Shown piece by piece: positions 14,342-62,710 of a DNA stretch of 64,000 bases; position 1 is the first letter of the stretch, and each line of letters opens with the position of its first letter. The stretch spans positions 2,232,001 to 2,296,000 of the forward strand of contig NC_089429.1 of the NCBI RefSeq assembly GCF_026210795.1, written 5' to 3'. The position numbers and the translations under genes were made by a program. The DNA is from Rhizophagus irregularis (lineage: Eukaryota). A model generated the notes under the pieces. It ran no database searches, was not told the origin of the DNA, and worked only from the letters and a program-made list of their open reading frames with translations.

Positions 14342-15874
14342 ATGATTGTAAACCCATTTTTAAATGAATTATTACAACTCATTTTTAATAACCTTGATGA
14401 TGATATTGGTTCTTTATTTTCATTATTATTTGTAAATAAAAATTGGTGTGAAAATGCCGTCCCCATCTTGTGGAGAAGACCATTGAGTTATGATCGTCAT
14501 AATTTTGAAGAAACAACGAAAATCAAAAAAATAATTCCAATACTTCTTTCACAAATCTCATTACAAGAAAGAATCGATTTAGAACTTAAAGATATTCCAA
14601 CTAAAACTATGTTTGATTATGTATCGTTTATTAAACAATTTGACATATCCTTATTAGATTGGTTAGTTTGTGAGAAATATACCATGGCAATAAGCAAAAC
14701 TATTTTTATGAAAACAAAAAGATTAGATGAATTAACATTTTTATATGAAGCATATGGAGATGATCTTTATGAAAGTATTTTTACATTACCAAAATCACAA
14801 ATGTTACTTAATCATATCACAAAGTTGAAGTTTAATTCTACTGGAAAATATTCACTTTTTCCTAATTTATCAATTTATGTTAAAAATATCAAATATCTTT
14901 CCATTAATTTTTCCTGCAGTAGTAATAATCATAAAAATGTTGTGAAATTTTTTGAGGATCTTATTGAATTTATTTCTGTTCAAAATAATTTGGAATATTT
15001 TATCATAAATATTAGATCTAATCTTTTTAGTATTATGCATATGGAAAAATGGAGAGGACTTTTCTTTAAACTTTCTGAATCTCATTCTATAAAGTATATA
15101 ATGATTAAAGGTTGTATTGATGGAGAACAAACTGATTTGAATTTTTTATCTAATTGTTCAAATCTTGAAGAATTACATTTAGATTCTATGATTATTGATT
15201 ATGATAAATTGGTATGCTTAGAAAATATTTATCTACCAAAATTATTTTCTTTCTCATTATTAGGTTGTTATTTCATTTCTCCGAAATATAATTATGTTTA
15301 TAAAACAAATTTATGGCTAACTTATATTACAGCATTTTTAATGAATCATAGTAATACTTTGAAGGAATTAAAAATAATTTTAATGCTCGAAACTGTCAAA
15401 CGAAATTATTTGAAATCAATCCTTGCCGATTTATCATTATATTGTCAAAATCTTACATTGATTGGATTAAACTTGGATCATATTTTTGGTTATTATGTAG
15501 AATATAGAGAGAAAGTTGATAAAGTTGATGAAATATTTTTTAATTTACCTAAAGAATTATTATTGATTTTTATAAGATCACTTCCTAAAACTTTAAAATC
15601 TCTTTCATTTGAAGGAGTAATTGAACTTGATTATTTAGAAGAAATTATAAAAAATTATATTGATAATTTAATTAATTTAGATTTCTATTATTATACATGT
15701 GTTAAAGTATTAGAAAGAGATATTGATGAAATGACAAAAAATAGAAAATTAAAACTTAGTTATGATAAAAAAAGAATTAGTATTAATTGGACATCAATAT
15801 ATAGATATTTTTTAGATTTTAATTACCCTTGGTTAGCTAGCCATTCAATGGACGGCAAAGTATTTAACTCATAA
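14342..15874 (+). CDS. F-box-like / RNI-LRR-like protein (Glomeromycota-expanded type)
   Basis: Intronless 510-aa ORF; N-terminal NELLQLIFNNL..LFSLLFVNKNWCENAVPILWRRP F-box-like motif followed by LxxLxL-type repeats. Confidence 0.75.
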   Translation: MIVNPFLNELLQLIFNNLDDDIGSLFSLLFVNKNWCENAVPILWRRPLSYDRHNFEETTKIKKIIPILLSQISLQERIDLELKDIPTKTMFDYVSFIKQFDISLLDWLVCEKYTMAISKTIFMKTKRLDELTFLYEAYGDDLYESIFTLPKSQMLLNHITKLKFNSTGKYSLFPNLSIYVKNIKYLSINFSCSSNNHKNVVKFFEDLIEFISVQNNLEYFIINIRSNLFSIMHMEKWRGLFFKLSESHSIKYIMIKGCIDGEQTDLNFLSNCSNLEELHLDSMIIDYDKLVCLENIYLPKLFSFSLLGCYFISPKYNYVYKTNLWLTYITAFLMNHSNTLKELKIILMLETVKRNYLKSILADLSLYCQNLTLIGLNLDHIFGYYVEYREKVDKVDEIFFNLPKELLLIFIRSLPKTLKSLSFEGVIELDYLEEIIKNYIDNLINLDFYYYTCVKVLERDIDEMTKNRKLKLSYDKKRISINWTSIYRYFLDFNYPWLASHSMDGKVFNS

Positions 15875-28530: not shown

Positions 28531-29055
28531 TTAATAAAGCGAGTCTTTACATCTATTTACCACATAACATTGAACACTTAACATTTCCTGTCGTGTACAA
28601 AAATATTATCAATCACGTCATCTGAGCTGAGTTTCTACATTGATTATCAGATTCAACTATATCTGATTATGTGGCTTTATAAAAACGACATTTGTAAGAT
28701 ATGCAAAATATTATATTGAACGAAAATATTTAACAACATGAATTCTTCTATATACCCCGGATACAACGGTGAGCCTTATAGCTTCTTTAATAACATTCAT
28801 TCGGTTTCTAATCAAACTTTCTACTTTTTGGTTCTCGCTTCTTATATGAACTGGCTATGTACCTTCTTTACCACCAAATAAAAAATTTTGCGCACTCCTA
28901 GCAAGTAACAATATCTTTCTTATGACCGGTAAACACTGAACGTACGAGTTATAAAAAAAGATTTGCAGACATATTGGGGTTATCGAAGAACACTGAAAGG
29001 TAAAACGAAAGCGAGATGAAGAAAAAGAAATAACCCATCATCAAAACGTTTCCGA

Positions 29056-29620
29056 TCCGTTATTTCTCTTACTTATCTCATCCAAGGAAATACAATAGCA
29101 GATGCCTTCGGAGTCGATATTGAGAAGAGTAAATCTATTAGCAAGCTTAAAGACATTATCAAGAAAAAGAATACACAAACATTTGCTAACTTTGATGCAA
29201 AGGACATTAAGCTATGGAAGGCAATAATTCCCGACGATCATATCGATCAGTTGAGAACTCTTACACTCCAGCACAAAGACGAACTCTTTGCAATGAAAAG
29301 ATTTCGAAATACTTCCCTTTTATACCTCCCGAGGAGCATATTCATGTTGTCGTAAAGTCCCCACGTAAATATCAGTTACAGTATACGAATTTTACATTTA
29401 TTCGCCCTGTATTATTCATATAACATGTCTTCGTTTTCCAGTTCTTAGTCTGAAAGAGGCGTTGACATGTATTCCGCCACCAATTACGTATTCTCCAAAA
29501 TGTACAAAGTCGGAAAAAAAAACTACTAAAGTAAATTGAGATCCACCTACAAGAATATTTCTATGGAGACTTTTTTGATGAAGTTAATCAATTCCATTTC
29601 GACAAACAGCCAGATAAAGT
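29056..29620 (+). pseudogene. Crinkler (CRN) effector-type N-terminal domain, disrupted
   Basis: LIQGNTIADAFGVDIEKSKSISKLKDIIKKKNTQTFANFDAKDIKLWK, then a frameshift into ISKYFPFIPPEEHIHVVVKSP (LWK and HIHVVV hallmarks); no intact start codon. Confidence 0.75.
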
Positions 29621-31267: not shown

Positions 31268-32802
31268 TTATTTTTTTTTAATGATTTGAAATACTTCATA
31301 ATCTTCTATTAGAAATTTATCTTCACTGTCTCTTATCTTTTTCTCATAATATTTTTGTTTACAGTAAACCACATTAAAATTTAATCCAGCTGCTAATGAA
31401 CCTGATGGATCTAATGAAATTTTTGAACCTATTTTAAGGTCGCCAAAACATGGACCTGCACCTATGTGGCAAACTATTGCTTTATCTATATCTTCTACAT
31501 TACTTAAGAATGCATTTTCAAGATTACTCTTACTTTTAAAAGAAAATAAAAAACTATATTGAGTTTGAATCCAACCACTAACAGAATCCCATGTTAAAGG
31601 ATTATATCCACCAACAATTTCTTCTGTTCCTTTTATTTTAAGAAAAGTGACAGTATTATTCTTATGATCACATAATTCATGAAATTCTTTAGGTTTAAAT
31701 CCATCTCTACTTCCTCTTAACAGAAGCTTAAATTCGTATGGTAAATATAATTCTCTCAAATATGTAAATTTACTATTATTATCCAATTTATTAATCCATC
31801 TTGAAACAATTGAAATAATATTTAAATTAACAATTTTTGAATCAATAGTCATATCTGTTTTTATATTTCTTGGAAGTGAAATATTATCATCATAACTTGA
31901 TTCATAATCAGGATCCATATAAGAGTTTAATAAATCATTATAAAGTTGATGATTTAAAAGTTTTTTATAAGGACTTACTTTATGTAAGAATTCTTTAGAT
32001 GATAAACTATAAAATCTAATCAAAGGTATACAATTCTTTAAAGTATTTTCCATCGCATTGAAATCATCATCCATCCAAGTATCAGAATCTGCATTAAGCG
32101 TAGGATTTTGTGTAATTCCCCATTGTAATACATGTTCCCAAATTTCAACTTCTTTCATTTGTAAATCATCTCTTTTAATAATTGGAACTAATAATTTTTC
32201 AGGAATTGAAGTGAAATCAGTTGAATTAAATAATTTTTCTGGTGAATCAGCAATAATATTTAAACAATAATTTTGGAGTTCAGAAAAATTATTAGATTTA
32301 AAACTTGTTCGATGTGTTAATTCAAAATGTTGTTCTATCCACTCGGATTCGTTTAAAATTAAGTAATTTTGTAAATGACCAACTAATTCCTGAAGAAGTA
32401 GTTCATCTGCAGCTACTAAAATTTTAAGAATATCTGAAGTTTTCAACTCGTCTAACGAAAGAATACCACCATAAATATACCTATATATTAAAAAATTTTT
32501 TTTAATTAAAAAACTCTTTATTAGACGAGTAATTGTAATTAACGTTACCTTAAAATAATTTGAAAGATTTCTGATGATATATTTGGTAATTTAATATGAG
32601 ATAGGACATTATTATTTTTTTTATTTGAAGCTAAAGTTCTTCGTAAATATGGAGAACGGTAATATAATATATTCATATGTGCACGAAATATTTTAACGTT
32701 AGGATCTTCACCGACTTCAATCGTAATATCATAATATTCACTATCATCATCTAATAATTCAATGTAATTTTGACTTAGTTTTGAAAAAAATTCCGATGTC
32801 AT
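31268..32802 (-). CDS. BTB/POZ-BACK-TLDc domain protein (2 exons: 32802-32549, 32480-31268)
   Basis: DITIEVGEDPNVKIFRAHMNILYYRSPYL (BTB); LIR/EVEIWEHVLQWG (BACK-like); LLLRGSRDGF..FHELCD..GGYNPLTW..GPCFG..YEVFQI (TLDc). Confidence 0.92.
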
Positions 32803-33260
32803 TTTTTAAGTGGGAAAGAGAATGTAGATATGTTATGTAGTGTAACCATTACTACAGGTAGATTCTATAAAGAAAAAATTTTTTATTATTGTGCGACTTA
32901 CAACGTCACGAGTTAATTTTACTGTGTTATAGTTTGTTTGTTTTCAGTGCCAATTTAAGTTTTTGATACGTAAAATACTTTCCTTTATTTTAAAAAAGTG
33001 GTTGTACGACTTGTATGTGTACATCATAATTAATACATGCAGATGACCGATGCTAATCCTGATTTATAGCTAATTATGTTTATTGTGTTAGGGGTAATCA
33101 TTTGATGATCGACATAATGCAAAATTCGGGAGTTTATTTTATTTCCCCGAAAAAAAAGGCAAAAGTTAAATTTAAAAAAAAAATTCAAACATTCCCCTAC
33201 TTTTTTCTCTCTCTCTTTTCTTTATTACATTTTCTTTTTTTTTTAAAAAAAAAATAAAAT

Positions 33261-34991
33261 ATGACATGTTCAAAAATATTTTCAGGAGATTTACCTGAAT
33301 TAATAAACGAAGTTATAAAATATTTTCGTCATGATTATAAAACATTACATTCATGTATATTGGTTAATAGATTATGGTGTCGTCTAGCAATTCCATTATT
33401 ATGGGAAGATCCATTTTCAATAAAACTTCCTAAAAATTATCGTTTTATTGAAATTTATTTAAATAATAATTTAAATGAAGAAGATAAAACAAAATTAAAT
33501 GAATATGGTATTAATTATAATAAATTATTATTACCATCAAATACATCAAATAATTCATTATTTAATTATCCTAATTTTATTAAATGTTTAAATACATGGA
33601 AAATAATATTTTCTATTGAACAATGGATTTTAACTATTATAAATGTTAAAGCAGGATTACAATCCACCAATTATTTTTTAAAAAATATGTATCCAAATAA
33701 TTTTGATCAAAAATTAAATTCTTCAAGATTAATTTATAAATTATTATTTAAAATATTTATTGAAAATGAAGTAAAATTACATACTTTTGAAGTTATTGTT
33801 GTTAGAGATATTGATCATGATTGTTTTAATGATGCTTTTAATTTAATTTTACAAAATCAAGATTTTATTTTTAATATAAAAAATTTAAAACTTCAAAGAA
33901 TTGCAAATGGATCAAAAATTTTCCCTTTTTTAAAATTTTTATATTCAAATTGTAATTCAATTAATTCACTTTATTTTCAATTCCCAAGATTTAATAATAA
34001 TAATTTATTAACTGAAGATTATTTATTAAAAATAATTAATTCACAAAAAAATCTTAAAAAAATTTCTTTTGAACGTAATTATTTATTTAAAGGAAAATTT
34101 TTTTTATCATTAAAAAATTCAAATTGTTCAAATACTTTAAATACCATCATATTTTATAGGATAGATTTTAAAAAAATCATCATTTCAAATGAAGAATTTG
34201 AAAATTTAAATGTTTTAGAATCAATTCATATACTTTATTGTTATTCTTTAAATTCAGATTTTATTCAACAAATTATTAATCTTAAAAAACCATTTAAATT
34301 AAAATCTTTATTTATGGATATTATGTTACAAATTGATTCTTTAAATTTATTATTACAAAAATCTGGTTCTTATTTAGAAAATATTGGTTTTGGCTCTTCT
34401 ATAAGTAATGAATTAAGAAAACAATTTGATTTATTTATGAAATATTGTAAAAATATTAAATTTTTTGAATTACCAGGTTTTGATAATTTAAATATTTATT
34501 TATCTTTTGATTTAATTAAAATTCTTGATCAAAATCTTAATTATCTTTCTATAGATTTTCATTATTATCTTGATTATTATTATCATCATAATTTTTCAAA
34601 TGATGGTGATATGGAACCTAGTTCTATAGTATTATTAAATTTGGGTCAAATTCTTCCTCATAAGTTAGAATATTTAAATTTATCTCTTAAATTTGATTTA
34701 AATAATTTAGAAATATTTTTACAAAATTCTCAAAATACTTTTATTAAAAAATTATTAATTAGAAATAAAATGCAAGAAGGAAGTCTTAATATTTTACCTT
34801 ATATAAAGAAATATATTATGAAAAAAGAAAGGGTTAAATATTTAGCTATAATGGAAGTTTATTTTGAAAAAAGGGAAGATTTATCTTTTATGAAAGATGA
34901 GGTGAAAGAATTTGAATCTTATAATATTAAAGTTCAAAATTATGATGATTTATATATTCAAGTTTATGATTTGATAAAAGAGATGGATTAG
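33261..34991 (+). CDS. F-box-like / RNI-LRR-like protein
   Basis: Intronless 576-aa ORF starting MTCSKIFSGDLPELINEVIKYF..LHSCILVNRLWCRLAIPLLWEDPF. Confidence 0.85.
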   Translation: MTCSKIFSGDLPELINEVIKYFRHDYKTLHSCILVNRLWCRLAIPLLWEDPFSIKLPKNYRFIEIYLNNNLNEEDKTKLNEYGINYNKLLLPSNTSNNSLFNYPNFIKCLNTWKIIFSIEQWILTIINVKAGLQSTNYFLKNMYPNNFDQKLNSSRLIYKLLFKIFIENEVKLHTFEVIVVRDIDHDCFNDAFNLILQNQDFIFNIKNLKLQRIANGSKIFPFLKFLYSNCNSINSLYFQFPRFNNNNLLTEDYLLKIINSQKNLKKISFERNYLFKGKFFLSLKNSNCSNTLNTIIFYRIDFKKIIISNEEFENLNVLESIHILYCYSLNSDFIQQIINLKKPFKLKSLFMDIMLQIDSLNLLLQKSGSYLENIGFGSSISNELRKQFDLFMKYCKNIKFFELPGFDNLNIYLSFDLIKILDQNLNYLSIDFHYYLDYYYHHNFSNDGDMEPSSIVLLNLGQILPHKLEYLNLSLKFDLNNLEIFLQNSQNTFIKKLLIRNKMQEGSLNILPYIKKYIMKKERVKYLAIMEVYFEKREDLSFMKDEVKEFESYNIKVQNYDDLYIQVYDLIKEMD

Positions 34992-37169
34992 ATGTTTTAC
35001 TTTGCGTATTTTTGCAATTTAGTATTTCTTTTACTTATATAGAGAATTTCCATGTTACGCGTATATCGAGACTTTTTAAATTCAATTTAGCATAAATAAA
35101 TTTAGTATTTCTTTTTATCGTAATAAAGTATGTACTTTATAAGTTGATAGAAACCTGAGTTATTATTTAAATAAATAAAATTTGTAGTGAAATTAGAAAA
35201 CTTTATATGTCATAACATTTATTAATGACAACGAAAAATATATTTTTTGCTATAGACTGTTCTAATTAAAAAATAATTATAGCAAAGTCACATGGCCTTT
35301 AAGATTATTTAAAATTTCTTGGATAAAAATTTACTTCATACATCTTTAAAGAATAAATATTTACAGAAACTAAAAATAAGTTAACATATTAATCAAGGCG
35401 CCTACGAACTAGGCGGAAGATAGTTTTAGTCGTAATTCGTGAACTACTTTTCGACTACCAAAATATCGCTTATCACAAAATTACATACCAGTTAATTAAC
35501 CTGCTAATAAAAGTTTTTTTAATTTATTACGGATCAAAAAAAAAAATATTAAATTTTTTATAGGAAATACACGTACTTATTTATTAATATAAATGTATTA
35601 TAAAAGTGGTGAGATTGCGAATTCATTGGATTGGATCGGATAAAATTCAACCCAACCCATAGAGGCTCCATAGAGGATTAGATTTTTGAGAAAAATTTTT
35701 TGGTTAAAAAATTTATGTTAGTTATAAGCGGAGTGATGTCACTGATGTGGGTAGATAATTTAAATTAACTGGTTAATTTATCCGGTCAAATTATGTATCA
35801 TAAAGATTATGATAATATTATAGCGAACTAAAATTGTAACGGAGAAAATGTTTTTGTATATCCTTAATATATACAGTATGTTTTACATAATATAATTATA
35901 TTTCAACGAAAATTTTTATGGGTGCGTTTGCAAATTCAAATGGGTCTAGTACGATTGACTATATTGTACCACTGTAACGTCTGAAATTACCTAGTGAAAT
36001 TATTAATTTTGGGCGCAGTCTTGAACATGTCTGTTTTTAATTTACTGCGGTCCGGAATGACCATAATATTTTCATTGGTTATTTTATTATTTTATTTTTA
36101 TTGGTTATTTTATTTTATTATTATGGGACTACGTCCGCGATGACGTTAAACTAATTATTTTATTTGATCTATATAATTTTGCCAATTATATGAGATTTTG
36201 AAAAAGAGAAATTATTATTTTAATTGGTTATTTAATTTCCTTAAATATACTAGTTAAGTTTCATTTAGAAATGGGATTTAGAAATTATTTTCTTGAATTT
36301 TTCATTCTGTTATTTTTTTTTATTATGAAACTCGGGATTTGTTATAAATTTTATCGAATATAATAAAAGTTATTTTTGTAGCTAGTGGTGGCAAACGTCT
36401 TTATGACGGGCACAAGTCCTACACCACCTAAACTTCTTTAACCTTCGTGGTTAACCTTAACTGGTTCTAATAGTTGCGAGAATTCTATTTCGTAACATTT
36501 TTTAATGACGACAAAAATTATAAAGTGGACGGTCAAACTTTTGTAAATGTATTATACTCTTGATTTATTTCAGATTGAAGTAATTTCAAATTACTTCTTT
36601 TCGCTTAATACAGTATGTATTTTCTTCTCCAAAAGTAATCAAAAAGTAATCAAATTTTATCGAACATTACAATTTTAGATATATTATCTAAAATTTATGA
36701 CAAATAAATAAAATAAAATAAAAAACAAACGTCAAACATATATATTACAGTCAATTTTGATAAATAATAATTATGTAGTTGAATTTCAATTTTTTACTTA
36801 ATCTATGTACGTATTTCTTCCATTTTTAAATTTATCACATTTTATTTATAATAAATAATAAAGGAATGTGTTTACCAAAAAAAAAAAGAATTGTTCAATA
36901 ATTTGATTTTTTTTTTCCTGTTGTGCGACGACGGATTAGTCTATTCATCGACGGAGAATTGAGCTCCGAAAATTACTATATTAAGTTGTATAATGGCGGA
37001 TCGCCAACATACATAATTGTATTTTTTCTATAGACGTTTGCAATTTACCGTAATTTTTTCTAAATAGAATTTTCTAGAATTTCTTCATAAAATATAAATA
37101 CCGTCGTTTAATTTTTACATCCAAATTTGAAGCCACTTTCTTAAAATATTATATATGTGGAAATAAGCA

Positions 37170-39700
37170 ATGGCTTATTCACATGAATTTTATGATCCAA
37201 AATTGAAATCTAGTCCTGTACCTATTTTATTTATTCCTTTTAAAAAAAACGAGGAAAAATGTAATTATTGTGGAATTGAATATTCCAAGACACTTAAATT
37301 TGAACAGAAATATTGTAAAAATTGTTTATTTTTGTATATTAAATATATGGGAAACAATACATGCTTGGATACATATATAAGTACAAATAATACTCAGTGT
37401 GTTGAACATAAAGCGACTAGGAATAGTTTTTGTACAATAAACATTCAAGAATGGTGTGAATATTGTTCTGCGATTTCACTCTTTACGCATTTAATCCCCA
37501 ATACTTCTTCATTAAATAATTACTCTATTTCACAAAGTATGTATGATTCTGCTACAAACTATGAGTGGAGGCTATTTTATTTAACTGAGTATGGTCAAAA
37601 ACATTATTACCAAATTTCCTCTGAGTGGATAGAATTGATATTGACTAAAAAGTCCATTCAAGTACTTTATTTATCATGGTGGGATAATTTTGATAAATGT
37701 ATGTTTTGTCTACAAGAATTAAAATATATACACCAAGAGTCAGTATCTAATTGTCAAAAATGGTGCCAAAAATGGTGTTCGCAATGCTTTATAATTTATA
37801 CAGGATGTAGGTATTGTTTAACAACAAATGTTATTTTTGGAATTACAAGTCAATCTCAATGTAAAAATTGTGAAAGAATATCGTTTATTAATATTGATAT
37901 TACAAATGTTAGCAGTGAAAATTGTATCATGGATGAATTTATTCTAACTTTTACAAGAAATGATACAGATTCAAACTCATTAAGGTTTATTAGATATTTA
38001 TATAGTAAAATGGTAAAATATTTAATAGAACGGATTCCATATTCTCAATTTAAAGATTTAAGGAAAATAGGAGAAGGAGGATTTAGTATTATTTATAAAG
38101 CAACTTGGTCAGATGATGGTACAAGGAATATTGACGTTGCTTTAAAAAAATTATTTAATTCACAAAATATAAGTAAATATTTTTTCAATGAGGTAATATT
38201 TGATATTAATATATCTTTCAATGTGCTTTATTCAATATTTAATAATATATTTATTCTAGCTAAAAGCACTTTCTCGATGTAATTATGCAACATTCGGAAT
38301 AATTGGTTTTCATGGTATTACACAAGATCCTATAACAGAAGAATATATATTGATAATGAAATATGCAAATAGCGGAAATTTACATAATTATTTGCAAAAT
38401 AATTTTATAAATATTACTTGGACTAGAAAACTGAGGATTTTAAAGGATATTTCAGAAGGGTATTTTCGTACTTTTTAATGTATTAATTTTATTATTTACA
38501 TTTAAGTTAATCAACTACCAATGTTTCTATATTAGACTTAAATATATTCATGGCAATAATTTTATGCATCGGGATTTTCATAGTGGGAACATACTATCAT
38601 CAATTCAATCTTGGCTAGCTAGAGATCGTCGGAGTATACTTCAAGATTGGCTAATTGGAGACTTTGGATTATCACAACCTGCAAATAGCACCTCACCAAA
38701 TAATGAAATATATGGAGTAATACCTTATATTGCACCAGAAATATTTAAAGGTGCTGCATTTTCTCAAAAATCTGATATATATAGTTTTGGTATGATAATG
38801 TGGGAACTTACAACAGGTTGTAAACCTTTTGCTAGTGTTGAACATGATCATAATCTCATCTTTAAAATTCTTGATGGAGAACGACCTAAAATTACAGAAG
38901 ATACTCCTGAATGTTATGCCGATTTAATGAAAAAATGTTGGGATTCTAATCCTTCAAAAAGACCAACTATTGATAAAATCTGCAACACTATTCTTGATTG
39001 GACTTGGACTGCTATGATTAATCTTCAATTTGAAACTATTATGGAATTTGAACGAGCTGAAAAAAAAAGACTGAAATTAATACAATTAAAGAAACTTGGA
39101 CCCGGATTTAGTGAAAAACCTCATCCAAACGCAATTTATACAAGTAGAGCATTAAGTTCATTAATTTCTAAATCTTCTACTATAGATTTTTCTTCAATTA
39201 ATTCAGTTAGTGCTAAACAAGGTATATTATATTAATGATTACTAACTCGCAGTCAGATATGATCTATTTATTTCATTTTTATATTAACTTAAATACTTTT
39301 TAGAGTATATTACAAAAGAATATGAACTTGATATAAATAAAGTTCAAAGGTAACTGTTACAATGAATAAAAATATTAATAATATAATAGAAAATTAAAAT
39401 TTTTTATTATGCATTCTTTAGTTCATCCACTCAAAATATAAATTCCGGTCAAGTCCCTAATCTTCAGCATCAAAATGTTAGTGGTCCATTAAATTATTTA
39501 ACTGCAAATTCTTCAAGAAAGCGAAATAATGAAGAATTAAATATTGAAACACAAAATAGTAAAAAAATTAGTAAGTAAAATTTTTTATTTACTAATACTT
39601 GTAGCATATTACAGTATCATGCCAATTTAAATTAATTTTCTTTTTAATTAAAATAGGAAAAAATATTAATACTGATGATTCAGATAAAGAACTTTATTGA
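37170..39700 (+). CDS. TKL-type protein kinase with Cys-rich N-terminus (paralogue of 8020-10498)
   Basis: Same exon pattern; GEGGFSIIYKA, VALKK, HRDFHSGN, DFG and YIAPE motifs; last exon ends at TGA 39700. Confidence 0.88.
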
Positions 39701-45589: not shown

Positions 45590-48086
45590 TTATTCATCAT
45601 CGGAATTATTAATTTTAGTATATTTTCCTATTTTGTTAAAAAAAAATTATAAAATTGTTAAAGTGAAATACCACAGACGCTATTTATTTGTGAGTAAATA
45701 AAATGTTTACTTACTATTTTTTTGAGTTTCATTCGTTTCGTTCTTTAATTCTTCAAAATTACGCTTTCTTGAAGAATTTACAGGTACAATTAAGCTTTGA
45801 GTGGCGGAATTTGTGTTTTGTGTAGATAAACTAAAAATTGTACGATATTATTATTCATTTTATATTATTAGCAAGTTACATACATTTAAATATAAATTAA
45901 TTACCTTTGAATATTATTTATATCAAATTCATATTCTTTTGTAATATACTCTAAAAATTAATAAAAAATATCTAAGTTAACTAATCATATAACAGATAAA
46001 TTTAAAGAAGTAAATTCTATTATTATCACCTGACCGTCTAATTAACGTTTCAATTTTTTTCATTAATAGTAAATTATAATACACTATAACATACCTTGTT
46101 TCATATTAAATGAAACCATTGAATCTATAGTTGAAGCTTTAGAAATCAAACCACTTAATGCTCTACTTGTATAAATTGCTTTTGGATGAGACTTTTCACT
46201 AAATTCTGGTCCAAGTTTCTTTAATTGTATTAATTCCAATCTTTTATTTTCAGCTTGTTCAAATGTTTCATTCAACCTATATGATCTGTTCAATTCGTAA
46301 AAAGAAACCCAGATTTCATAAATAGTTGGTCTTTTTGAAGGATTAGAATCCCAACATTTTTTCATTAAATCGGCATAACATTTAGGAGTATCTTCTGTAA
46401 TTTTAGGTCGTTCTCCATCAAGAATTTTAAAGATGAGATTATGATCATGTTCAACATTAGTAAAAGGTTTACAACCTGTTGTAAATTCCCACATAATCAT
46501 GCCTAAACTATATATATCAGATTCTTTTGAAAATGCAGCACCTTTAAATATTTCTGGTGCGATATAAGGTATTACTCCATATATTTCATTATTAGATAAT
46601 GTATTATTTGCAGGTTGTGATAATCCTAAGTCTCCAACTTTCCAATATTCAGATAATAACATATTTCCACTATGAATATCTCGATGTATAAAATTATTAT
46701 CATGAATATTTTTAAGTCTAAAGTAAAACATTTAATTGTTAATAACTAACTGTATACAGAAAAACAAACTAATTCACTAAAAATATACAATAAATACCCA
46801 AATGATATTCCTTGTAAAATATACAACTTATCCCTCCATGTAATATTTATAAAGTTCTTTTGCAAATAATCATGCAAATTTCCACCTTTTGCATAATTCA
46901 ATATTAACATATATTCTTTTGTTATAGGATCTTGTGTAATGCCATAACAGTCAATAACCCTATAACCTTTACATTGATAAAGTGATCTTAACTAAAGTAT
47001 AAATAAATCAATTAATACAATAAGCATCAAAAAACACATTGCAAGTATATAAAATGTAAATATTACTTCATTTAGAAAATGTTTACTGATATTTTGTGAA
47101 TCACGTAATTTTTTTACAGCAACATCAGATCCCTTCCAAGTCGCTTTATAAATAATACTGAATCCTCCTTCTGCTATTTTCTTTAAATTCATAATTTGAG
47201 AATATGGAATCCACTCTATTACCTCCATTGATAAATCAAGTTCACTATGAATAAAAAAATATATTTCAATTGGACAGTGCATTGTCCTGTTGTTCAGATA
47301 TTTAGCAATAATTTGGAGATTCTTATTGTTAATTCTTGTAGAATCAAGAAATTTATCTATAATAAAATTTCCACTGCTAATATTTGTAATATTAATATTA
47401 ATGAATGAAGTTCTTTTGCATTTCTTACATTGAGATTGATCTGCAATTCCAAAAATTATATTGGTTGTTAAACAATACCTACATCCAGTATAAATTGTAA
47501 AGCAACATGAACACCATTTTTGACAATAAGATTTTGACTCTTGGTGTATATATTTCAGTTCTTTATCACAAACTGCACATTGATTATGACTATCCCACCA
47601 TGGTAAATATAGAATCGGAATGGACTTTTTAGTCAAAGTTGATTCTACCCATCCAGAAGAAATCTGATAACCTGATAACAGCTTCTTGTAATGACAACAA
47701 GATTCGTTAAGATTAAAGTGATTAAAGTGCCAATAATATTAATTTTCTGTGACTACTTGCGTGAACTGTGAAATCTCAGAGCAATATTCACACCATTCTT
47801 GAATGTTTGTTGTATAAAAATTATTTCTGGTTGCTTTATGTTTAAGACACTGAGAATTATTTGTATATATACGTACATTCAAGTATGTATTATTGCCTGT
47901 TATATATTGAATATACCAAAATAAACAATTTTTGCAATATTTTTGTTCAAACATGAGTGTCTCGGAATATTTAATTCCACAATAATTACATTGTTTTTCA
48001 TTGTTATTAAAAGGAATAAATAAAACAGGTACAGGACTAGATTTTAATTTTGACGTAGGATCAAATGGATCATTATTTTTGTCCAT
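45590..48086 (-). pseudogene. TKL-type Cys-rich kinase paralogue with one premature stop
   Basis: Close inverted paralogue of 8020-10498, including upstream DNA; in-frame TAA at 47739-47741 where the paralogue has TCA; the frame continues normally afterwards (YQISSGWVESTLTKK, HRDIHSGN). Confidence 0.82.
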
Positions 48087-49225
48087 AATGTTGTATTTCA
48101 AGAAAATAGTTTATATAAAAGTTAAATGTAAAAATTATAAAGCAATATATATGTATTTTTATGAAGATACAATAACAAAGTGAAATTCTACAGAACTTTT
48201 CTTTAAAGAATCAAAGATATTCTATATAGAAATTCTATAAAGTATTATTTTGTAACTGTACTACAATTTGAAATTTGTGATTTATAAAATTTGTTGACGA
48301 TCAATTTAACCAGAAATTAAAAAAATTTTTTTTTTTTTTTGACGATGAACTCAAAAAATTCATTTGATAATCAAGTAACGATAAAAACTTTTCTTAATAA
48401 ACTAAAACGTGTTGTTTCATCAACTCTGATTATATAATAATCATTCCGACATTTGATTTCCTACTAAATTATTATTAAGTTCTTAAGTCATAAATAAAAT
48501 AAAAAGTCTTAATGAACATCAGATATAATTTAATAAAAACAAATACATTTATTAACAATTTCTGTAAAAATTTTTTATGATATTAATGTATATTATCAAC
48601 CGTCCTCAAATTTATACAAATTTTCATTTCCTTTTCAAGTTACGATATCGAGGCAACAAAACATTAACTACCAGATTCTCATTTAAATGAACAACAAAGA
48701 ATTCATTTAAATTTATTTATTTTCTTTTATCAGCTATTATACTATTGTTAAATTTCAAGGATAATTAAAATTTGTGATTATTATATGAAATTATGTGAAA
48801 TTTTGATATTGTTTATGCATTGAACAAAATTTTTTACAGTCATTCTTATTTAATTAAAATTAAAATAATAAGGAAAAGGAGTTAATAAGAAATTATAGTA
48901 ATTGATCAAACAGCATAGATTTAAATAAAACCTGTGATGATAATAATACTGCGACAGAAATGAAAAAAGAAAAGGAATTTATTAAAAAGAAAAATTTATG
49001 AAACTTTGATAAATATTAAATTACCAAATATTTTACTCAAAATCCATAATTACAAGAAAAAACCAAATTATAAATTAAAAAAAAAAACATGTTTCATTTT
49101 GTCTTACAAACACTTATAGGACCCAGAAATATACTGTATATAAAAGGGTCAGGTTTGAGTTTGCGTATTTTGAACTAAAAAAATCATGAAAATCTTACCT
49201 TGTTTAGATAATTTTTGATAATTCC

Positions 49226-52108
49226 TATGGCAAGCCGCACTGGTCAAAAGTGTGCTGCATTTTGCGGCAGGTGCGCCTGTTTTTAGGCGCCTGATGCGCT
49301 AAGTGCGGCAGGTGCACCTGTTTTTAGGCGCCTGAGTGCGGCAGGTGCACATAGTTTTTAGGCGCCTGATGCGCAGGATGCGCCTGGTTTTAGGCGCCTG
49401 AGGCGCCTAAGTGCGGCAGTTGCTCCTGATTGCAGCAGATGCGCCTGTTTTTAGGCGCCTAATTGCGGCAGGTGCAGCAGATTGCGGCAGGTGCGCCTGT
49501 TTTTTGTTCATAGGTTTTTTTTGGAAATAAGCATCTTCTGAGCTTTTAGCATAGATCTACGTACATTGCCAAATTAATTTAATAATCTGATAAAAATAGT
49601 AAAGTTAAGCTTTTTTTGGTTCAAACTTGTTCCAATGGATCGGATGTTGTTTTATCCTTGAAATTATCACTTTTTTTTCAACCAACTAAATTTTATTAAA
49701 TTAAATGTTCAAAATAATTATGAATATAAACATATAAAAAAATTTTTATCTTAATGGATTATCCATTGTATCATTTATTTTTGTTTTATTTTTATTTTTT
49801 TAAATTTTTTTTTGCTTATAATCTTGAATAATTTCATTGTCTTTCTTTTATAATTGGTATTTTTAGTTTTCTTTTTAAATATATTTGTATAGTGAAACAA
49901 GTAAAATTTATTTTTAAACTTCATATGCAATTTTACAATAAGAATTCTATTACCTTTTGATTACATACTAGTTAAATAAAAGATTTTGACTTTTTAGAAA
50001 TTCAGTCTCAACATTCCATCTTTTGATGTAAAATAAATACATGAACAAAAAAATTGAAAAAACTAACAACTGAATACAATAATCACAAAAAGGTCTTTCA
50101 TGTTTGTTATTATTATTAATCATATTAATACAAGATTTTATAATTATTAAATTATTAGGAGTTTATAAATTACCCGGGTTCTAAGATAGGAATTTTTTTT
50201 ATTTCTAGTAAAATATCCAGGTCTTATGAAATTGGATATGCAGTAATCCTGCACCATGATAAAAATAGTTTAAAATATATAAGTAAAAATGTGTCAGTTT
50301 AATATTATTTTATAACATTTAGTTAAAAAAAAAAAAAAGTCAAAGGTACAGTATCTTTATTAATTAGTTATATAAATTATTTTTTTTAATATTATTACTA
50401 TATTATAAGTTATGAAATTTAAAAATATGCTAAAAAAATTATTTTTTAATAAAAGTATTTGTAAAAAAAAAATTATTTTTTGTTAAACATAATAATTTAA
50501 TAGTAATTTAATATAGGAAAAAACATTTTTACGCGGGTGCGTAGCAACGCGCCCCCTTTTTGGTAATTTTCTCATAGTAAATATGTCGATCATTTATTAT
50601 CACGTGACATCGTTAAATTTTCTGATGTTTGAATAAACGTCGCATAAACTTTATGTACATATTATAAAGCTTTCAAAAGACACGTACTATGCGTATTTTT
50701 GCTTGCCCTACAACTTTACTTTAAGACTAAAGTATGGTTTGAATGGTGTTTTTGACTTTTATATATGAGATATTATAAAGGGTGCGTTGCAATGCATCTG
50801 CATATAAAATTTAAACCCTTTAATATATTATAAATTTTTTGTTAAGTAAGGTTTTTAAAGACAGAAATTTTATTTTACAAGAAAAAACGAGATTAATATT
50901 GATAAAATAATTATTAAAATGAAATAAAAATAAAATAGAGATTAATTTTGAGGCAATGCTAAAGTTAGTAAACTATTTTTATCATAGGTAGGGTTACTGC
51001 TTTGTGAAAAGGGAATACTATATGCAATTCTAGACAGTAGCCCTGTTTACTTCCATTTGATTTTTTTCAAAATTTTTAAAAATTGGAATAACAACTGAAG
51101 AAAATTGATGATCTGTGTATTCCGAAATTTTAAAATGCAATACAGCTTTAACATGATCGGTTGAAAATAAAAAGAAAAAATTGAATATGATTTTATACTC
51201 AATTTTAATTTGCTAAAATTAATTACACTAGAATCGGATGAGCAGGGCTAGTATAAATATTTATAGTACATGACTTTGGTTAACTAAAATTTTCAATACC
51301 AATGCTATATTTGAGCAAGCTGAGTAATTTCTATTAATTTGCTACATTTATACAACCATGGATTATATAATTGTACAGTAGTATATATGCTACACAAAAT
51401 AATTAGTGATTTATAAAAATTTTATGCAATTATTTCTATTTTTGTTTAATAAACTGAGATTAACTGAAGGTAATATTAACTAGGAAAGACTACTTCTTTA
51501 TGCTCATATATAAATCATGAAAATTTAAACAGTAGATAAGATTTGTAATAAATTTTGAATTTTTTGAAATAAACTAAAATTGTTCACATTTAAAAATAGC
51601 ATTATAATAACTATAGCAGGATAAAAAGAGATCATCACACAAACCACAAGTCTGGTGATAATTCCAAGGATAGAACAACATCCAATCCATTGGAACGAGT
51701 TTGAACCAAAAAAAGCTTAACTTACTATTTTTATCAAATTATTAAATTAATCTGGCAATGTACGTAGATCTATGCTAAAAGCTCAAAAGATGCTTATTTC
51801 CAAAAAAAGCCTATGATCGAAAAGGAATAAAAAACAGGCGCACCTGCCGCAATCTGCTGCACCTGCCGCAATTAGGCGCCTAAAAACAGGCGCACCTGCT
51901 GCAATCAGGAGCAACTGCCGCACTTAGGCGCCTCAGGCGCCTAAAACCAGGCGCATCCTGCGCATCAGGCGCCTAAAAACTATGTGCACCTGCCGCACTC
52001 AGGCGCCTAAAAATAGGTGTACCTGCCGCACTTAGCGCATCAGGCGCCTAAAAACAGGCGCACCTGCCGCAAAATGCGGCACACTTTTGACCAGAGTGGC
52101 TTGCCATA
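49226..52108. mobile_element. Non-autonomous long-TIR (~445 bp) element, IS3EU-like termini
   Basis: TIRs 49226-49670 and 51655-52108 containing GC-rich AGGCGCCT/TGCGGCAG subrepeats; ends TATGG...CCATA; 6-bp TSD AATTCC at 49220-49225 and 52109-52114; no internal ORF. Confidence 0.85.
50516..50818. mobile_element. Mutator-type MITE nested in the long-TIR element
   Basis: Imperfect ~70-bp TIRs (GG...CC ends); 9-bp TSD TTTAATATA at 50507-50515 and 50819-50827. Confidence 0.75.
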
Positions 52109-56281: not shown

Positions 56282-59200
56282 TTATGCTTCTAAATTTCTT
56301 AATTCTTTTTCTTCTTGCTTTAATTCTAATTTCAATTCATCCAAATTCTTTCTTAATGAATTTATATCTTCTGCCATCATATTAGAATTTAATTGCATCA
56401 TGGTTCCTTCCTGAGAATTAGTAGCAAATTTAAAAATTTTGTAATTATCAAAATTAAAATCATTCAACTTAAGAATATTTTCAATCATGAGGCTAAATTC
56501 AAACTCTTTATTTTTCTGAACAATATACTTTAAGGAATAATAATCATCTTTGTTCAGCTGTAATACTTCATCACTATATTTTGTGAGAATACTTTGAAAT
56601 TCTTTAGTATATTTATCAGTCAATGTAGAGATTTTTCTGGTAGAACCAATAGTATTCCTTACTTTATTAATAGAGCTTTCTAGCTGATTAAAACAATCTT
56701 GCAGTTTTTCAATAGCTTCTTCCCATAATGTTAAAAATTTACCCTTAGCTTTTAGAAAATTATTAACTTGATTGAGAACCTGTTTTTTTCTATTAGTATC
56801 ATAAGAAGCTGAAGTTGTTAATAATTCTTGTTGGAGTTCATCTATCTCTTTTTGTTTAGCTTCTCTTTCTTTATGAATTTCCTTAATATTTTTTCCACTA
56901 ATCAATTCATTTTCTTTGACTTTTAACTTTTTAATACGCTCATAATCAAGGTCAATCAATCTTTGTTCTAGTTCATTTATTTTATCTTCTTTTATCTGTA
57001 AAGCTTGGGTTAATTGCATTTTGATTTGTTCTTCAATATTCAATTTTTGTTTCAATTGTGCAAATTCTTTTTTCATTTCAGCTTTTTCTTTTTCCAACTC
57101 AGCTTTTCCTTTTTCTAATTCGATTTTTTCCTTTTTCACATCAGCTTTTTCCTTTTCCATCTCAGCCTTTTCTTTTTCTGACTTAGCTTTCAATTTAACA
57201 GTAAGCTTTTGATCTTGTGATAGGTCATTCAACCTGTTGCATAACTGGATTTTTTCTTGTTTTACTTTTTTATAATTAGCTTGAGAGTAACTTAGTTTAA
57301 ACTCTAGTTCTTGAAAATTAACTTCTGTTTGAGTTAATCTTTCTTTCAAACCAATTTTTTCTTGCATTAACTGGTCAATTTGATTTTGAACTTGATGGTT
57401 AACTAGTTTATTTTGATCCAACTGTTCAGTTAAATCTCCATCCAAGGCTTGTTTTTCATTTTGCAGGTAAGTAATTTGGAGTTGTAAAGTATTTTCTTTT
57501 TCTGCAGATTTCTTAGATTGTAAAGCCAAGTCAAGTCTCAAATTTTGATTATCTTGCTCAAATTGAAAATTTCTTTGTTGTAAATTAACTAACTCATTTT
57601 CTAACTTAAGATTTCTTTCTTCTATTTGCTTATAATTAATTTGAGATTGACTTAATTGATTTTTAAATTGCTGAAATTTTAATTCTTGAGTTTCTGATTG
57701 AACTAATTTATCTTGCAAATTAGTTTTTTCTTGACTGATTTGTTTTAAATTGTTAGCCAAAACTTGCTTTTCAGTTATATTAATTAAATTTTGATTTTCT
57801 TGCTCAAATAGTTGTTGTAAATTAGCTAATTCTGTTTGAATATTCTGATATGCTAATTGTTTTTCTTTTGACTCATTTTGAGAACTAGTTTCAGCAATTC
57901 TTTCTAATTTAAGAAGCTTCTGTTTAGTATCATCTTTTTGATTCATTTCAAAAGATTTCAATTCTTGAGATTCTAGAATTTCATTTAATTCTTTACTAGT
58001 AAAATCAAGTAAATGGCTTGTATAGCATGCTTGTGGATGAGATTTTACAATATGGTTATTATGCTCAATTGGTGCATTTATAAATTCCATAATATTGCTT
58101 TTTAATTCTTCATTGATTTCTTTAGCTTTCGCTCTAAAAGGAAGAAGAACCCAAGCATTAAAAATATCTAAAATTTCTTTAGAAGATGGCCTTTTTAATG
58201 GATCTTCATCCCAACATTTTTTCATCAAATCTATATAACATTGTGGAGTATTTTCAATAATTTCAGGACGTTCACCTTTACAAATACTTAAAGCAAGTTG
58301 AAAATCATGTGCTTTATCATTAAATGGTGGAATTCCAGATATAAATTCCCACATAACCATAGAAAAATTATATATATCACTAGCTTGAGTATAAGGTTGA
58401 CCTCTTAAAATTTCAGGTGCCATAAATGGTATAATACCATAAATATCATTTTCTTTTAAAAAAGATTCTGTAAGATAATGTAATCCTATATAATCACTAA
58501 TAAAGACTCCATATGTATTTTTTTCTTCATATTTGTGACACAAAATATTACCATCATGAAAGTTATAATGAATAAGACCTTCTTCATGAATCTTATTAAG
58601 ACCTTTAATAATTTCATGTAAATAAAATATTCTTTTTTCCCAATTTTTTGTTACTTCTATTAAACATTCTCTTAAGTTACCTTCACTATTATATTTCATC
58701 ATTAACATATAATTCAAAGTATTTGGATTTTTTGTAAATCCATATATCTTAATAATTTCGGCGTATTTAATAATTTTCAACTATAAAAACAATATTTAGC
58801 AAATAAGTATAAATAGATCATAATTAAATTTTAAAAAAAAATAAAATAATACTTATTCATACTTCATTTAAAAATTCTTTTAAACTTTCATCTGAATTAT
58901 CAAGATAGTCAAAATGTCTAAGGATTACTTCAAAATCTTCACCTTCAATTCTATGTATAGCTTTATATATAGTACCAAATCCTCCTTTATTAAGATATTC
59001 AATATTTTTAAGATTATTATAAGGAATCCAATTTAAGTTATTTTTACGAATAAATTGATCTACAATTTTACTTCCACTTGTAGGGATGGGAGCGACTCAT
59101 TCGGCTCTATTTCGGTTTTTCATCGGCTCAACTTTAATTCTCATTGCATAATGTGAGATACGTGCGTCAAATTAACGACATGGGTAAGTCATGTGATGAC

Positions 59201-62200
59201 GATCAATCATAGAAATTTTGATTGGTCATCAAACGATAGTTGGTTCGTGATCATCATAATTTTGATGACGATCCTAACTTGAACCGATTTTTTGAAGTCG
59301 GCTTTGAAGTCGGCTCGGTTAAAATTTAAAAGTTATTAAAATGATTTCTAACTTATAAATTTTCTTTCTCTTTTTTACCCTGAAGAAATGAACATTTCCT
59401 TTGTTATTGACAGAAATTTTAGCTCATGTAAATTCAAATTCCACCAGATATAGCATCGGTTCAAAAGTCGCTCGAAATCACGTGATTTGAGCCGACCCAT
59501 CCCTATCCACTTGTATTAGAACTTTAGATATAAAATAAAATTAAAACAAATTTTACAATTAAAAATTTAATATTGAATAATATTAATTATACTTACTCTA
59601 AATAAATTTATAAAATTCAATTATAAAATTCAATACAATAAAGAATTAATAATAAATTAAAGAAAAATTTATTTCTCACCCGGGTGATTTCTAGCTTAAT
59701 ATATTAAAATGTCGTCATGCTGATCATTTGCTGATCAAAATTTTTGATGAAAAATTTTTTTTTTTGAAATAAAACTTTATAACTTTTAAAATTACAATTT
59801 ATGGGTAATTTTGCTTACTCTATAAATTTACTTAATACCTTAAGAAAGGTCATAACTACCAATTTTAACATTTTGACAATTTGTAACTTGGGATAAGGAA
59901 TATCGAATCTCACCCAAGGTGAAAAATAAATTTATTCTAAATTAAATATAATTAAAAAAAATCAATATATACTTACAAGCTAAAATATTTTAAATAAAAA
60001 GTTTAGTTAGTTTAAATTATATGATAAATATTATATAAATATAATAGGATTAAATAAATAACTTACACCCTATATTATTAAATAAATAATTTTTTAAATA
60101 AATAATTTAGTTAATTTAAATTATATAATAAATATTATATAAATATAATAAACTACTTACTATCTAAAATATTTGAATAATTTTTAAATAAAGAATTAGT
60201 TAGTTTAAATTATATGTAAATATTACTGTATAAATATAATAAACTACTTACAATCTAAATATTTGAATAATTTTTAAATAAAGAATTAGTTGGTTTAAAT
60301 TATATGTAAATATTACTGTATATAAATATAATAAACTACTTACTAACTAAAATATTTGAATAATTATTTAAATAAAAAATTTAGTTAATTTATATTATAT
60401 GTATAAATATTATATAAATATAATAAACTACTTACCAACTAAAATATTTGAATAATTTTTTAAATAAAAAATTTAGTTAGTTTAAATTATATGTATATAT
60501 TATATAGATATAATAGAGTTAAATAAATAACTTACACCCTATATTATTGAATAATTTTTTAAATAAGAATTTAGTTATTTTAAATTATATGTAAATATTA
60601 TAAAATAAACTACTTACAATCTAAAATATTTGAATAATTTTTTAAATAAATAATTTAGTTAGTTTAAATTATATGTATATATTATATAAATATAATAGAG
60701 TTAAATAAATAACTTACACTCTATATATATTATTGAATGAATAATTTTTTAAATAAGAATTTAGTTATTTTAAATTATATGTAAATATTATATAATAAAC
60801 TACTTACGATCTAAAATATTTGAATAATTTTTTAAATAAAGAATTTAGTTAGTTTGAATTATATGTAAATATTATATAAATAAATAACTTACCCACTATA
60901 TTATTAGTAAATAAATAATTTTTTAAATAAAGAATTTAGTTAGTTTAAATCATATGTAAATAGTATTATATAAATATAATAAACTACTTACAATCTAAAA
61001 TATTTGAATAATTTTTTAAATAAAGAATTTAGTTAAGTTTAAATTATCATTATATGTAAATATTATATAAATATAATAAACTACTTACTTTCTAAAATTA
61101 GTAAAATATTTGTTTAGTTAGTTTAAATTATATGTAAATATTATATAAATATAATAAACTACTTACTATCTAAAATATTTGAATTATTTTTTAAATAATA
61201 AATTTAGTTTGTTTAAATTATATGCAAATATTATATAAATATAATAGAATTAAATAAATAATTTATAACTTACGAGCTAAAAAAATATTCAAATAATTTT
61301 TTAAATAAAGAATTTAGTTAGTTTAAATATTATATAAATATAATAGGATTAAATAAATAACTTACGAGCTATATTAATAAATAAATAAATAATTTTTTAA
61401 ATAAAGTATTTAGTTAATTTAATTATCATTATATGTAATTATTATATAAATATAATAAACTACTTACTATCTAAAATATTTGAATTATTTTTTAAATAAT
61501 AAATTTAGTTTGTTTAAATTATATGCAAATATTATATAAATATAATAGAATTAAATAAATAATTTACACCCTATATTATTGAATGAATAATTTTTTTAAA
61601 TAAAGAATTTAGTTAATTTAAATTATATGTAAATGTTATATAAATATAATAGAATTAAATAAATGACTTACACGCTATATTATTGAATGAATAATTTTTT
61701 TAAATAAAGAATTTAGTTAGTTTAAATTATATGTAAATATTATATAAATATAATAAACTACTTACATTCTATAATATTTGGATAATTTTTTAAATATAGA
61801 ATTTAGTTAATTTAAATTATATGTAAATATTTATATAAATATAATAAACTACTTACGATCTAAATATTTGAATAATATTTTAAATAAAAAATTTAGTTGG
61901 TTTAAATTATATGTATATATTATATAAATGTAATAGAATTAAATAAATAACTTACTCTCTATATTATTAAATGAATAATTTTTTGAATAAAGAATTTAGT
62001 TAATTTAAATTATATGTGAATTTTACATAAATATAATAAACTACTTACGATCTAAAATATTAAATAATTTTTTAAAGAATTTAGTTAGTTAAATTATATA
62101 TAAATATAGTAGCTAATAGAATTAAATAAATGACAAACTTACACCCTATAGTATTATTAATGTTAAATTATAATCAATTAGATCAATTAGATAAAATATT

Positions 62201-62710
62201 ATAATTGTATATAAAAATTAAATATATATGGTAACTTACAATCTAATTATTTAAATAAATAATATTATTAATTTAAATTATATGTAAATATTTTAAATTA
62301 ATATAAAATTAAATACTTACTTTCTATTACATCATAATTATTAAGCAATTATATTAATGAAAAAAATTAGTTATTTGAAACATTTATATAAAATACAATA
62401 AAAATAAATAGCTATTAACTTACCAACTATAATAACATTAATAAAATAAATTATTTGATTATATTTAGAAATAAATAATTCAATTATTATAAATACAGTT
62501 AATTTAAAATTTTAAAAATTATTTGTTTATAATTTACAAGCTACAATATTATCATTAAATTTTTCTGAATAAGTTTACATACTTTTGTCTTCCTCGATTT
62601 CTGAAACTAGTTTAAATTTGTTTTAAAAAGTATTTAGAATAATTTCAAATTTATGTTAGATATCTATGTTCATGCTATATGCTTTTACCTTTGCCATTAC
62701 TTTGACCCAT
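56282..62710 (-). CDS. Putatively N-myristoylated pseudokinase + long coiled-coil protein with a micro-exon array; this copy interrupted by a hAT MITE
   Basis: Exon 1 62710-62689 (MGQSNGK); exon 2 62600(or 62606)-62583; 28 3-nt exons and a 1-nt exon (59597); exon 59521-58863 (SNTSGSKIVDQFI..WIPY..KGGFGTIYKA..FLNE, split by the MITE); final exon 58780-56282 (kinase C-lobe, coiled coil). All junctions are GT-AG and in frame. Confidence 0.8.
57060..57190 (-). repeat. 21-bp coding tandem repeat (heptad KEKAE(M/L)E)
   Basis: KEKAEMEKEKADVKKEKIELEKGKAELEKEKAEMKKE within the coiled coil. Confidence 0.7.
59081..59505. mobile_element. hAT-type MITE (425 bp) inserted in a kinase exon
   Basis: TIR TAGGGATGGG/CCCATCCCTA; 8-bp TSD TCCACTTG at 59073-59080 and 59506-59513; internal TCGGCT subrepeats. 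Confidence 0.9.
59662..59937. mobile_element. Mutator-type MITE (276 bp) inside an intron of the micro-exon gene
   Basis: ~30-bp imperfect TIR GAA(T)AAATTTATTT(C/T)TCACC..GGGTGA; 9-bp TSD TAAATTAAA at 59653-59661 and 59938-59946. Confidence 0.8.
59970..62545 (-). repeat. Tandem array of 28 intron + 3-nt micro-exon units (period ~78-114 bp)
   Basis: Each unit reads, on the minus strand, TAG|NNN|GTAA(G/A)T; the core units carry an internal (A)CTAAC/TTAAC branch-point-like motif. Confidence 0.9.

Follow-up and report, generated by a model that had tools for sequence, protein, structure and literature searches.

Codon-sized, alternatively spliced microexons have been described in the nank (NACHT-ankyrin) genes of Tuber melanosporum (Iotti et al. 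2012, as cited in excerpts of PMC4986451, PMC3689799 and PMC13449251). Runs of very short exons that encode variable proteins are also found in the Schistosoma MEGs (excerpt of PMC10526429), and a single-nucleotide exon of Arabidopsis provides a precedent for a spliced 1-nucleotide (nt) coding exon (excerpt of PMC4674806). In Rhizophagus irregularis, Ser/Thr/Tyr kinases (PF07714) are expanded, high-copy and often methylated, and hAT transposons were recently active (excerpt of PMC8647823). Here we describe an array of predicted 3-nt exons in 64,000 nt of R. irregularis (assembly GCF_026210795.1, contig NC_089429.1, positions 2,232,001 to 2,296,000), a stretch referred to as the window and numbered from its first letter. 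On the minus strand, the array lies downstream of two short exons and upstream of a 1-nt exon and a gene for a probable pseudokinase with a coiled-coil-like tail. We give a probability of roughly 0.6 to the full account that the array is spliced, that its cassettes are shuffled and selected for change, and that it encodes a variable N-terminal segment of the pseudokinase.

Layout and variability of the cassettes

A pattern scan of the minus strand located 28 cassettes of the form TAG-NNN-GTAA(G/A)T between 62540 and 59977, spaced 78–114 nt apart. TAG precedes the triplet in all 28, and the donor is GTAAGT in 26 and GTAAAT in 2. Mononucleotide shuffles of the array region (2000) contained 0.06 such sites on average and 2 at most, and the same scan gave just two isolated 3-nt exon hits in the rest of the window. 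The range of 60060..62150 proposed in the earlier note, which was made from the sequence alone, does hold 23 of the 28 cassettes (units 5–27); the real array is wider:

62240..62540, minus strand: 3-nt exons 1–4 (first bases 62540, 62426, 62323 and 62242), with diverged introns; splice-site scan and cassette comparison
60067..62145, minus strand: 3-nt exons 5–27, homogenised cassettes, 13 with a type A donor and 10 with a type B donor
59977..59979, minus strand: 3-nt exon 28; splice-site scan, with no differing letter in the covering contigs of sequencing runs X5 and X18

The array introns are about 90 nt long and resemble one another, and a branch-point-like ACTAA core is present in 24 of 27. 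Splice sites are perfect even in the four diverged units. The G+C content is 30% in the 3-nt exons vs 8% in the array introns, and no triplet of the window is a stop when read as a whole codon (phase 0).

The two cassette types that had been distinguished by their flanks are real, and the triplets assigned to type A (ATC, ATA, ATT, TTA, TTG, AAA and AAT) and type B (GGT, AGA, CGT, CTC, TGG and AGT) were listed correctly. Around a given exon, acceptor and donor are of matching type in 22 of 23 units (Fisher P=1e-5), whereas across an intron the association is absent (P=0.07) and, if anything, alternating. This observation suggested that the repeating unit is centred on the exon and that exchanges occur within the shared mid-intron core. 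Unit 14 is a recombinant with an A acceptor and a B donor, and 2-unit duplicates with shared indels are present. Together, these features support the proposed expansion by unequal crossover, or by conversion, and some type B units that are otherwise alike differ in all three triplet bases, which suggests cassette exchange besides point mutation.

Variability was expressed as the mean pairwise difference per column (pi) among aligned units, with 13 units and 78 intron columns for type A, and 9 units and 84 intron columns for type B (unit 5 omitted). We found that pi was 0.44 in the triplet vs 0.091 in non-splice intron columns of type A, and 0.63 vs 0.101 in type B, a 5–6-fold difference within each type. 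No intronic 3-column window reached the exon's pi (0/76 in type A, 0/82 in type B). Intron columns with a G/C consensus (pi 0.17 and 0.29) were above other intron columns, still below the triplets. The claim that triplets are more variable than their flanks was thus borne out in both types, while the description of these flanks as near-invariant was overstated, introns 5–27 averaging 78% identity with gaps counted. A similar contrast came from nearest neighbours (triplet 0.49, flanks 0.043) and from parsimony on flank-based trees, both biased because pairs and trees were chosen on the flanks; we relied on all-pairs pi instead.

Related loci, reading frame and selection

The best 80 of 256 metagenome loci with a kinase alignment (46–63% identity, 1–4.5 kb) were compared with the window. 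Chains of at least two 3-nt exons were found in 21 of the 80 on the kinase strand and in none on the opposite strand. Introns were 67–93% similar within a locus (8 loci tested) vs 66–76% similar to those of the window (all loci but L006), as expected of concerted evolution; intron units of other loci were barely above shuffles in their likeness to the window, with the exceptions of L006 (82%) and L010 (76%). An exact scan of metagenome contigs for the cassette pattern gave no match, and no relative was found in viral and prokaryote collections. Similarly, inspection of the N-termini of 278 homologous proteins revealed no recognisable phase-1 array peptide. No annotated ortholog includes the 3-nt exons, and in most annotated models the start is placed at an internal Met or in a false exon; gene catalogues mostly miss the array layout.

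Some of these loci showed further peculiarities. The arrays of L006, L007, L071 and L075 have lost an acceptor, carry non-canonical donors or run into an in-frame stop behind the last acceptor, and several copies look decayed. In the 21 array loci the kinase protein is 52–62% identical to that of the window, yet fourfold sites of shared residues are 70–95% identical, which reflects either fast protein evolution or A+T bias. The summed X5 contig depth over the repeat unit at 59972-60060 was about 3000 times single-contig depth; this value gives no copy number and was not counted as evidence, and it may reflect a large family of these units across the genome.

In phase 1, each triplet straddles two codons, contributing two bases to one and one to the next. 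Codons at junctions of adjacent exons contained no stop in this phase (0/87 vs 5.5 expected, P=0.001; within-chain shuffle P=0.002) in a pool of the window and 19 loci, from which L012 and L041 were removed as duplicates and in which one chance match in L009 was retained. No avoidance was observed in phase 2 (16 stops vs 15.5 expected) or at junctions of next-but-one exons (8/66 vs 4.2 expected). Stop avoidance between neighbours is the best indirect evidence that the 3-nt exons would be translated in order. The acceptor phase pointed the same way among the 32 loci listed with a terminal micro-exon. Where a 3-nt exon comes last (23 loci), the conserved-position acceptor calls for two leading bases in 21, the cases of L055 and L073 being unclear, and in 12 of these 21 an in-frame phase-0 AG is also available, mostly within the conserved coding stretch. 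After a terminal 1-nt or 4-nt exon (4 loci each), the acceptor needs one base in all eight. In L006 a stop directly follows this acceptor. Overall, 29 of 31 informative loci agree with phase 1 (the ambiguous L075 was not counted, and three locus pairs are near-duplicates), and the 3-nt exons are very likely spliced in this phase.

With regard to selection, the middle base of the triplet is the wobble position in phase 1, and is its least or joint-least variable column. For the proportions of replacement and silent differences (pN/pS), based on non-independent pairs, type A units gave 0.50/0.12 and type B units 0.62/0.46. With regard to the earlier proposal of diversifying selection on the triplets, we consider these values suggestive only, as those of type B are close, the pairs are non-independent and the flanks are possibly constrained or homogenised. 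Ten exons begin with AT, and none with the silent alternative AC. CpG decay was considered as the sole cause of triplet variation and rejected: a lone C/T change at a CpG-forming third base accounts for the difference in only 4 of 17 nearest-neighbour pairs. The 29-residue phase-1 product does contain ten W/Y/F, as had been counted, compared with 13–14% aromatics in the kinase domain (P=0.003). Since stop-free reorderings of the same triplets average 9.8 aromatics, this richness is explained by the triplet vocabulary and stop avoidance, and it had to be dropped as an independent sign of a binding surface.

The host gene and its surroundings

The remaining parts of the gene, and two insertions in this allele, are as follows:

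62689..62710, minus strand: exon 1, 22 nt, with ATG at 62710, ending in phase 1; a similar short N-terminus occurs in six annotated paralogs (P0030, P0129, P0147, P0157, P0195 and P0238)
62583..62606, minus strand: predicted exon 2, 24 nt, encoding an acidic stretch, starting and ending in phase 1; the frame would also hold with a second possible acceptor 6 nt further downstream
59597..59597, minus strand: 1-nt exon, shifting the frame from phase 1 to phase 2; matched by a 1-nt exon in L003, L006, L007 and L013, and replaced by a 4-nt exon in L009, L010, L016 and L080
58863..59521, minus strand: first kinase exon (N-lobe), interrupted by an element; 100% identity to P0002 over 72 amino acids
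58781..58862, minus strand: ordinary 82-nt intron within the kinase domain; paralog contigs join across it in three RNA-like runs
56282..58780, minus strand: last exon, 832 amino acids, kinase C-lobe and a long low-complexity, coiled-coil-like tail; PF07714 E=9e-27
59081..59505, no strand: hAT-like non-autonomous element, 425 bp, with perfect 10-bp terminal inverted repeats and an 8-bp target-site duplication
59649..59949, no strand: probable insertion with 32-nt inverted ends (an inverted-repeat pair), in the intron after exon 28

With the transposon removed, the joined gene model has an open frame of 951 amino acids, 29 of which come from the array; the micro-exons are thus a minor part of the coding sequence. 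The first 300 residues of the last exon are 90% identical to the R. irregularis protein P0002. PF07714 scored 94 bits against a cut-off of 23, PF00069 was also above its cut-off, and kinase domains were the only Pfam domains in the two kinase exons and in P0134, with no NACHT or ankyrin. Because its catalytic motifs are degenerate (VILR, with Arg for the beta-3 Lys; HYNFH, with HYN for HRD; DYI for DFG), the host protein is probably a catalytically dead pseudokinase. The Lys-to-Arg change is present in 2 of 52 homologs with the beta-3 motif. The protein looks intracellular; by inspection, exons 1 and 2 encode no signal-peptide-like stretch, only a short, polar and acidic one. N-myristoylation was considered from the Met-Gly start and rejected as not conserved, P0030 alone among the six paralog N-termini sharing Met-Gly. 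The window also contains three other kinase genes, at 7996-10040 (+), 37167-39235 (+) and 46084-48110 (-), which have Cys-rich N-termini and lack an array of 3-nt exons.

The 425-bp element, flanked by target-site duplication copies at 59506-59513 and 59073-59080, puts an in-frame stop into the first kinase exon. It has no open reading frame and no transposase, is single-copy in the window, and is also present in DNA run X5. We take it to be hAT-like from features of non-autonomous hAT (Ac/Ds-like) elements, namely the shared 8-bp target duplication and short inverted ends beginning TAGGGATG. Around the element, we found no GT/GC-AG intron that excises it cleanly and restores the ortholog junction; with two introns that use weak donors, the frame is open but altered. 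Most of the element could be spliced out, with the frame kept, from a weak donor within the target duplication (59510 to 59096 or 59060). Four of five members of the P0002 cluster (P0002, P0132, P0133 and P0134, of which P0002 and P0134 are near-identical sequences) read straight through this site, and the fifth starts downstream. Since the site is uninterrupted in these four and no intron removes the element cleanly, they come from element-free alleles. Probably, the present allele is disabled or weakened by the element, and other strains carry an uninterrupted exon. Within the insertion at 59649..59949 lie both the false first exon of annotated orthologs and, at 59819, a splice-site match for a 1-nt exon; in the P0002 cluster this annotated first exon is a mis-call inside the intron preceding the kinase exon. 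The transposon interruption, the lost catalytic residues and the family-wide layout had all been overlooked in the earlier note.

None of the 24 listed sequencing runs was recorded as RNA. Contigs from X18, X19 and X20, guessed to be RNA, and from X5 (DNA) were compared over 58600-60060. Paralog contigs from the three guessed-RNA runs are joined across the 82-nt kinase intron, one paralog contig of X20 joins the kinase exon to an intron-core match, and repeat-unit sequence is present in the RNA-like runs. Several other observations were not counted as evidence. Record 13 of X19 matches 59082-58981 with one difference and carries 125 further upstream letters, and this run has no depth over most of the element nor at 59482-59530. 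Record 17 of X20 stops at 58780, with bin depths suggesting resumption at 58863. Finally, a two-contig loose-end consensus of X19 parses into common array triplets, other registers being nearly as good.

Elsewhere in the window, two G+C-rich tandem arrays (49263-49504 and 51830-52072) have units that look mutually reverse-complementary and are possibly the ends of a 2.8-kb transposon, and a run of long open frames at 2051-6852 (+) resembles by eye an intron-split DNA-transposon gene. Open frames at 14330-15874, 29020-29355, 31268-32590 and 33258-34991 resemble F-box/LRR, crinkler-type and BTB-TLD proteins, which are typical of the expanded families of these fungi.

Competing explanations and known systems

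In the account that we favour, 28 one-codon exons and a one-base exon would be spliced together to give a 29-residue variable N-terminal segment of an intracellular pseudokinase. Unequal crossover or gene conversion in the mid-intron core would duplicate, delete and swap cassettes, and because each exon straddles two codons, each cassette event would rewrite two residues with the frame kept. Selection would remove orders that create stops and would probably favour residue changes. By analogy with fungal non-self receptors, the segment might provide a pseudokinase signalling scaffold with a binding or specificity tag that differs between strains and paralogs; recognition is a plausible role, and any specific role is less probable than the account itself. 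More tentative, and in our opinion rather unlikely, is a genome-wide library in arbuscular mycorrhizal fungi, in which hundreds to thousands of split-codon cassettes would be exchanged within and between kinase genes, writing hypervariable N-terminal recognition tags residue by residue and acting as a concealed means of receptor diversification within the largest gene family of these fungi.

Several observations weigh against the favoured account. No read or contig joining triplets was seen in the four runs compared over 58600-60060, whose contigs gave no triplet string that could be read with confidence. The selection comparison has 23 typed units only, with non-independent pairs, and the type B pN/pS is near 1. 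The introns of L006 are 82% like those of the window, exceeding the value for its ordinary intron (72%), and the array flanks may be constrained instead of neutral. In a phase-0 reading, type A has the look of purifying selection (pS 0.85, pN 0.33), and use of the second 1-nt match yields an open model in this phase. Besides, 3 gene models among the 278 homologs, the annotated Rhizophagus kinases P0028 (RGB39444.1), P0030 (POG70100.1) and P0129, have N-terminal Gly/Ile/Leu/Met/Arg strings that agree with a phase-0 reading of the triplet vocabulary, with Ser-Lys as the last two residues before the kinase exon in each; these strings may be gene-finder picks in the wrong frame, or true variants.

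Some of these points would also suit exons that are real and encode a nearly unconstrained spacer, whose triplets drift or are converted while the need for splicing keeps the flanks uniform, without positive selection. We regard this as improbable, even if the conserved branch-point-like core, the L006 introns (as like the window's as window introns are to each other), the type B ratio, the more variable G/C columns, the G+C-richer exons and the CG methylation often found in R. irregularis kinase genes (excerpt of PMC8647823) all fit it. In type A, however, silent sites are about as variable as the introns (0.12 vs 0.09) and replacement sites four times more so, and most intron columns are A/T-rich filler, for which constraint throughout seems unlikely. 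No more probable as the main source of diversity is alternative splicing, with different subsets of 3-nt exons in each transcript, an idea that is compatible with the favoured account. The frame is kept whichever subset is included, a stop arises in only 2 of 28 single skips, and the Tuber nank genes, in the excerpts cited above, offer a precedent. Nevertheless, stops are avoided between neighbours and not between next-but-one exons, and random skipping of 10–50% of exons would put a stop into 17–40% of transcripts; the all-included product seems to be what selection sees.

The remaining explanations question the frame or the exons themselves. It is very unlikely that the array is an intron-derived minisatellite within one long intron, its copied splice sites being skipped decoys. 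Skipping all exons keeps the frame too, the exons are missing from every annotated ortholog, and the repeat-unit sequence in RNA-like runs, including the X20 contig joined to an intron-core match, would be expected. Such decoys would hardly show stop avoidance confined to one frame, splice sites that stay perfect even in four diverged units, or a layout that persists in loci whose introns resemble the window's no more than shuffles do. Least credible to us are triplets read as whole codons from a second ATG, giving a hydrophobic segment of Ile, Leu and Gly on which selection is purifying, either as the only frame or in addition to another one. In its favour are the lack of stop triplets in the window, the mostly silent third-base changes of type A, an open model using ATG 62697 and both 1-nt matches, and the three gene models with phase-0 strings. 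This model requires the 59819 match, which lies within the intronic insertion; with one 1-nt exon, it runs into a stop at residue 49. Acceptor phases fit phase 1, the exon-1 frame common to paralogs enters in phase 1, and phase-1 stop avoidance would stay unexplained.

The kinase families of arbuscular mycorrhizal fungi are huge, and no function is known for them. Should the array be spliced, many kinase N-termini are mis-annotated and their most variable part is hidden, and the array is a concrete candidate for how these fungi distinguish strains, hosts or endobacteria. For splicing by intron definition, 28 consecutive 3-nt exons and a 1-nt exon separated by 90-nt introns would be an extreme test as well, and with split-codon cassettes a simple unequal crossover would become an amino-acid substitution. 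Our searches of the open-access literature, which did not extend to the supplements of R. irregularis genome papers, revealed no description of arrays like this one for arbuscular mycorrhizal fungi.

Among the known systems, the Arabidopsis exon stands alone (excerpt of PMC4674806), whereas the 1-nt exon described here ends an array and sets its phase. The host gene belongs to the expanded PF07714 kinases of R. irregularis and differs by its degenerate Lys, HRD and DFG motifs. Schistosoma MEGs have exons of 3–81 bp and introns of up to 5 kb and encode secreted proteins (excerpt of PMC10526429); here all array exons are 3 nt and introns are about 90 nt, the coding sequence does not consist mostly of micro-exons (29/951 residues), and no signal peptide was seen by inspection. 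The closest likeness is to the Tuber nank genes, which in the excerpts cited above combine tens of 3-nt exons, an expanded gene family in a mycorrhizal symbiont and proposed protein diversification, and many consecutive 3-nt exons with canonical splice sites are likewise found here. In contrast to Tuber, the array belongs to a Glomeromycotina pseudokinase whose tail is coiled-coil-like, instead of a NACHT-ankyrin NLR, it is at the N-terminus, its exons split codons and avoid stops only in neighbour order, and diversity is seen at the DNA level. The known codon-sized arrays of Tuber limit the novelty of the present one, which would work like them, but its host is not a nank gene.
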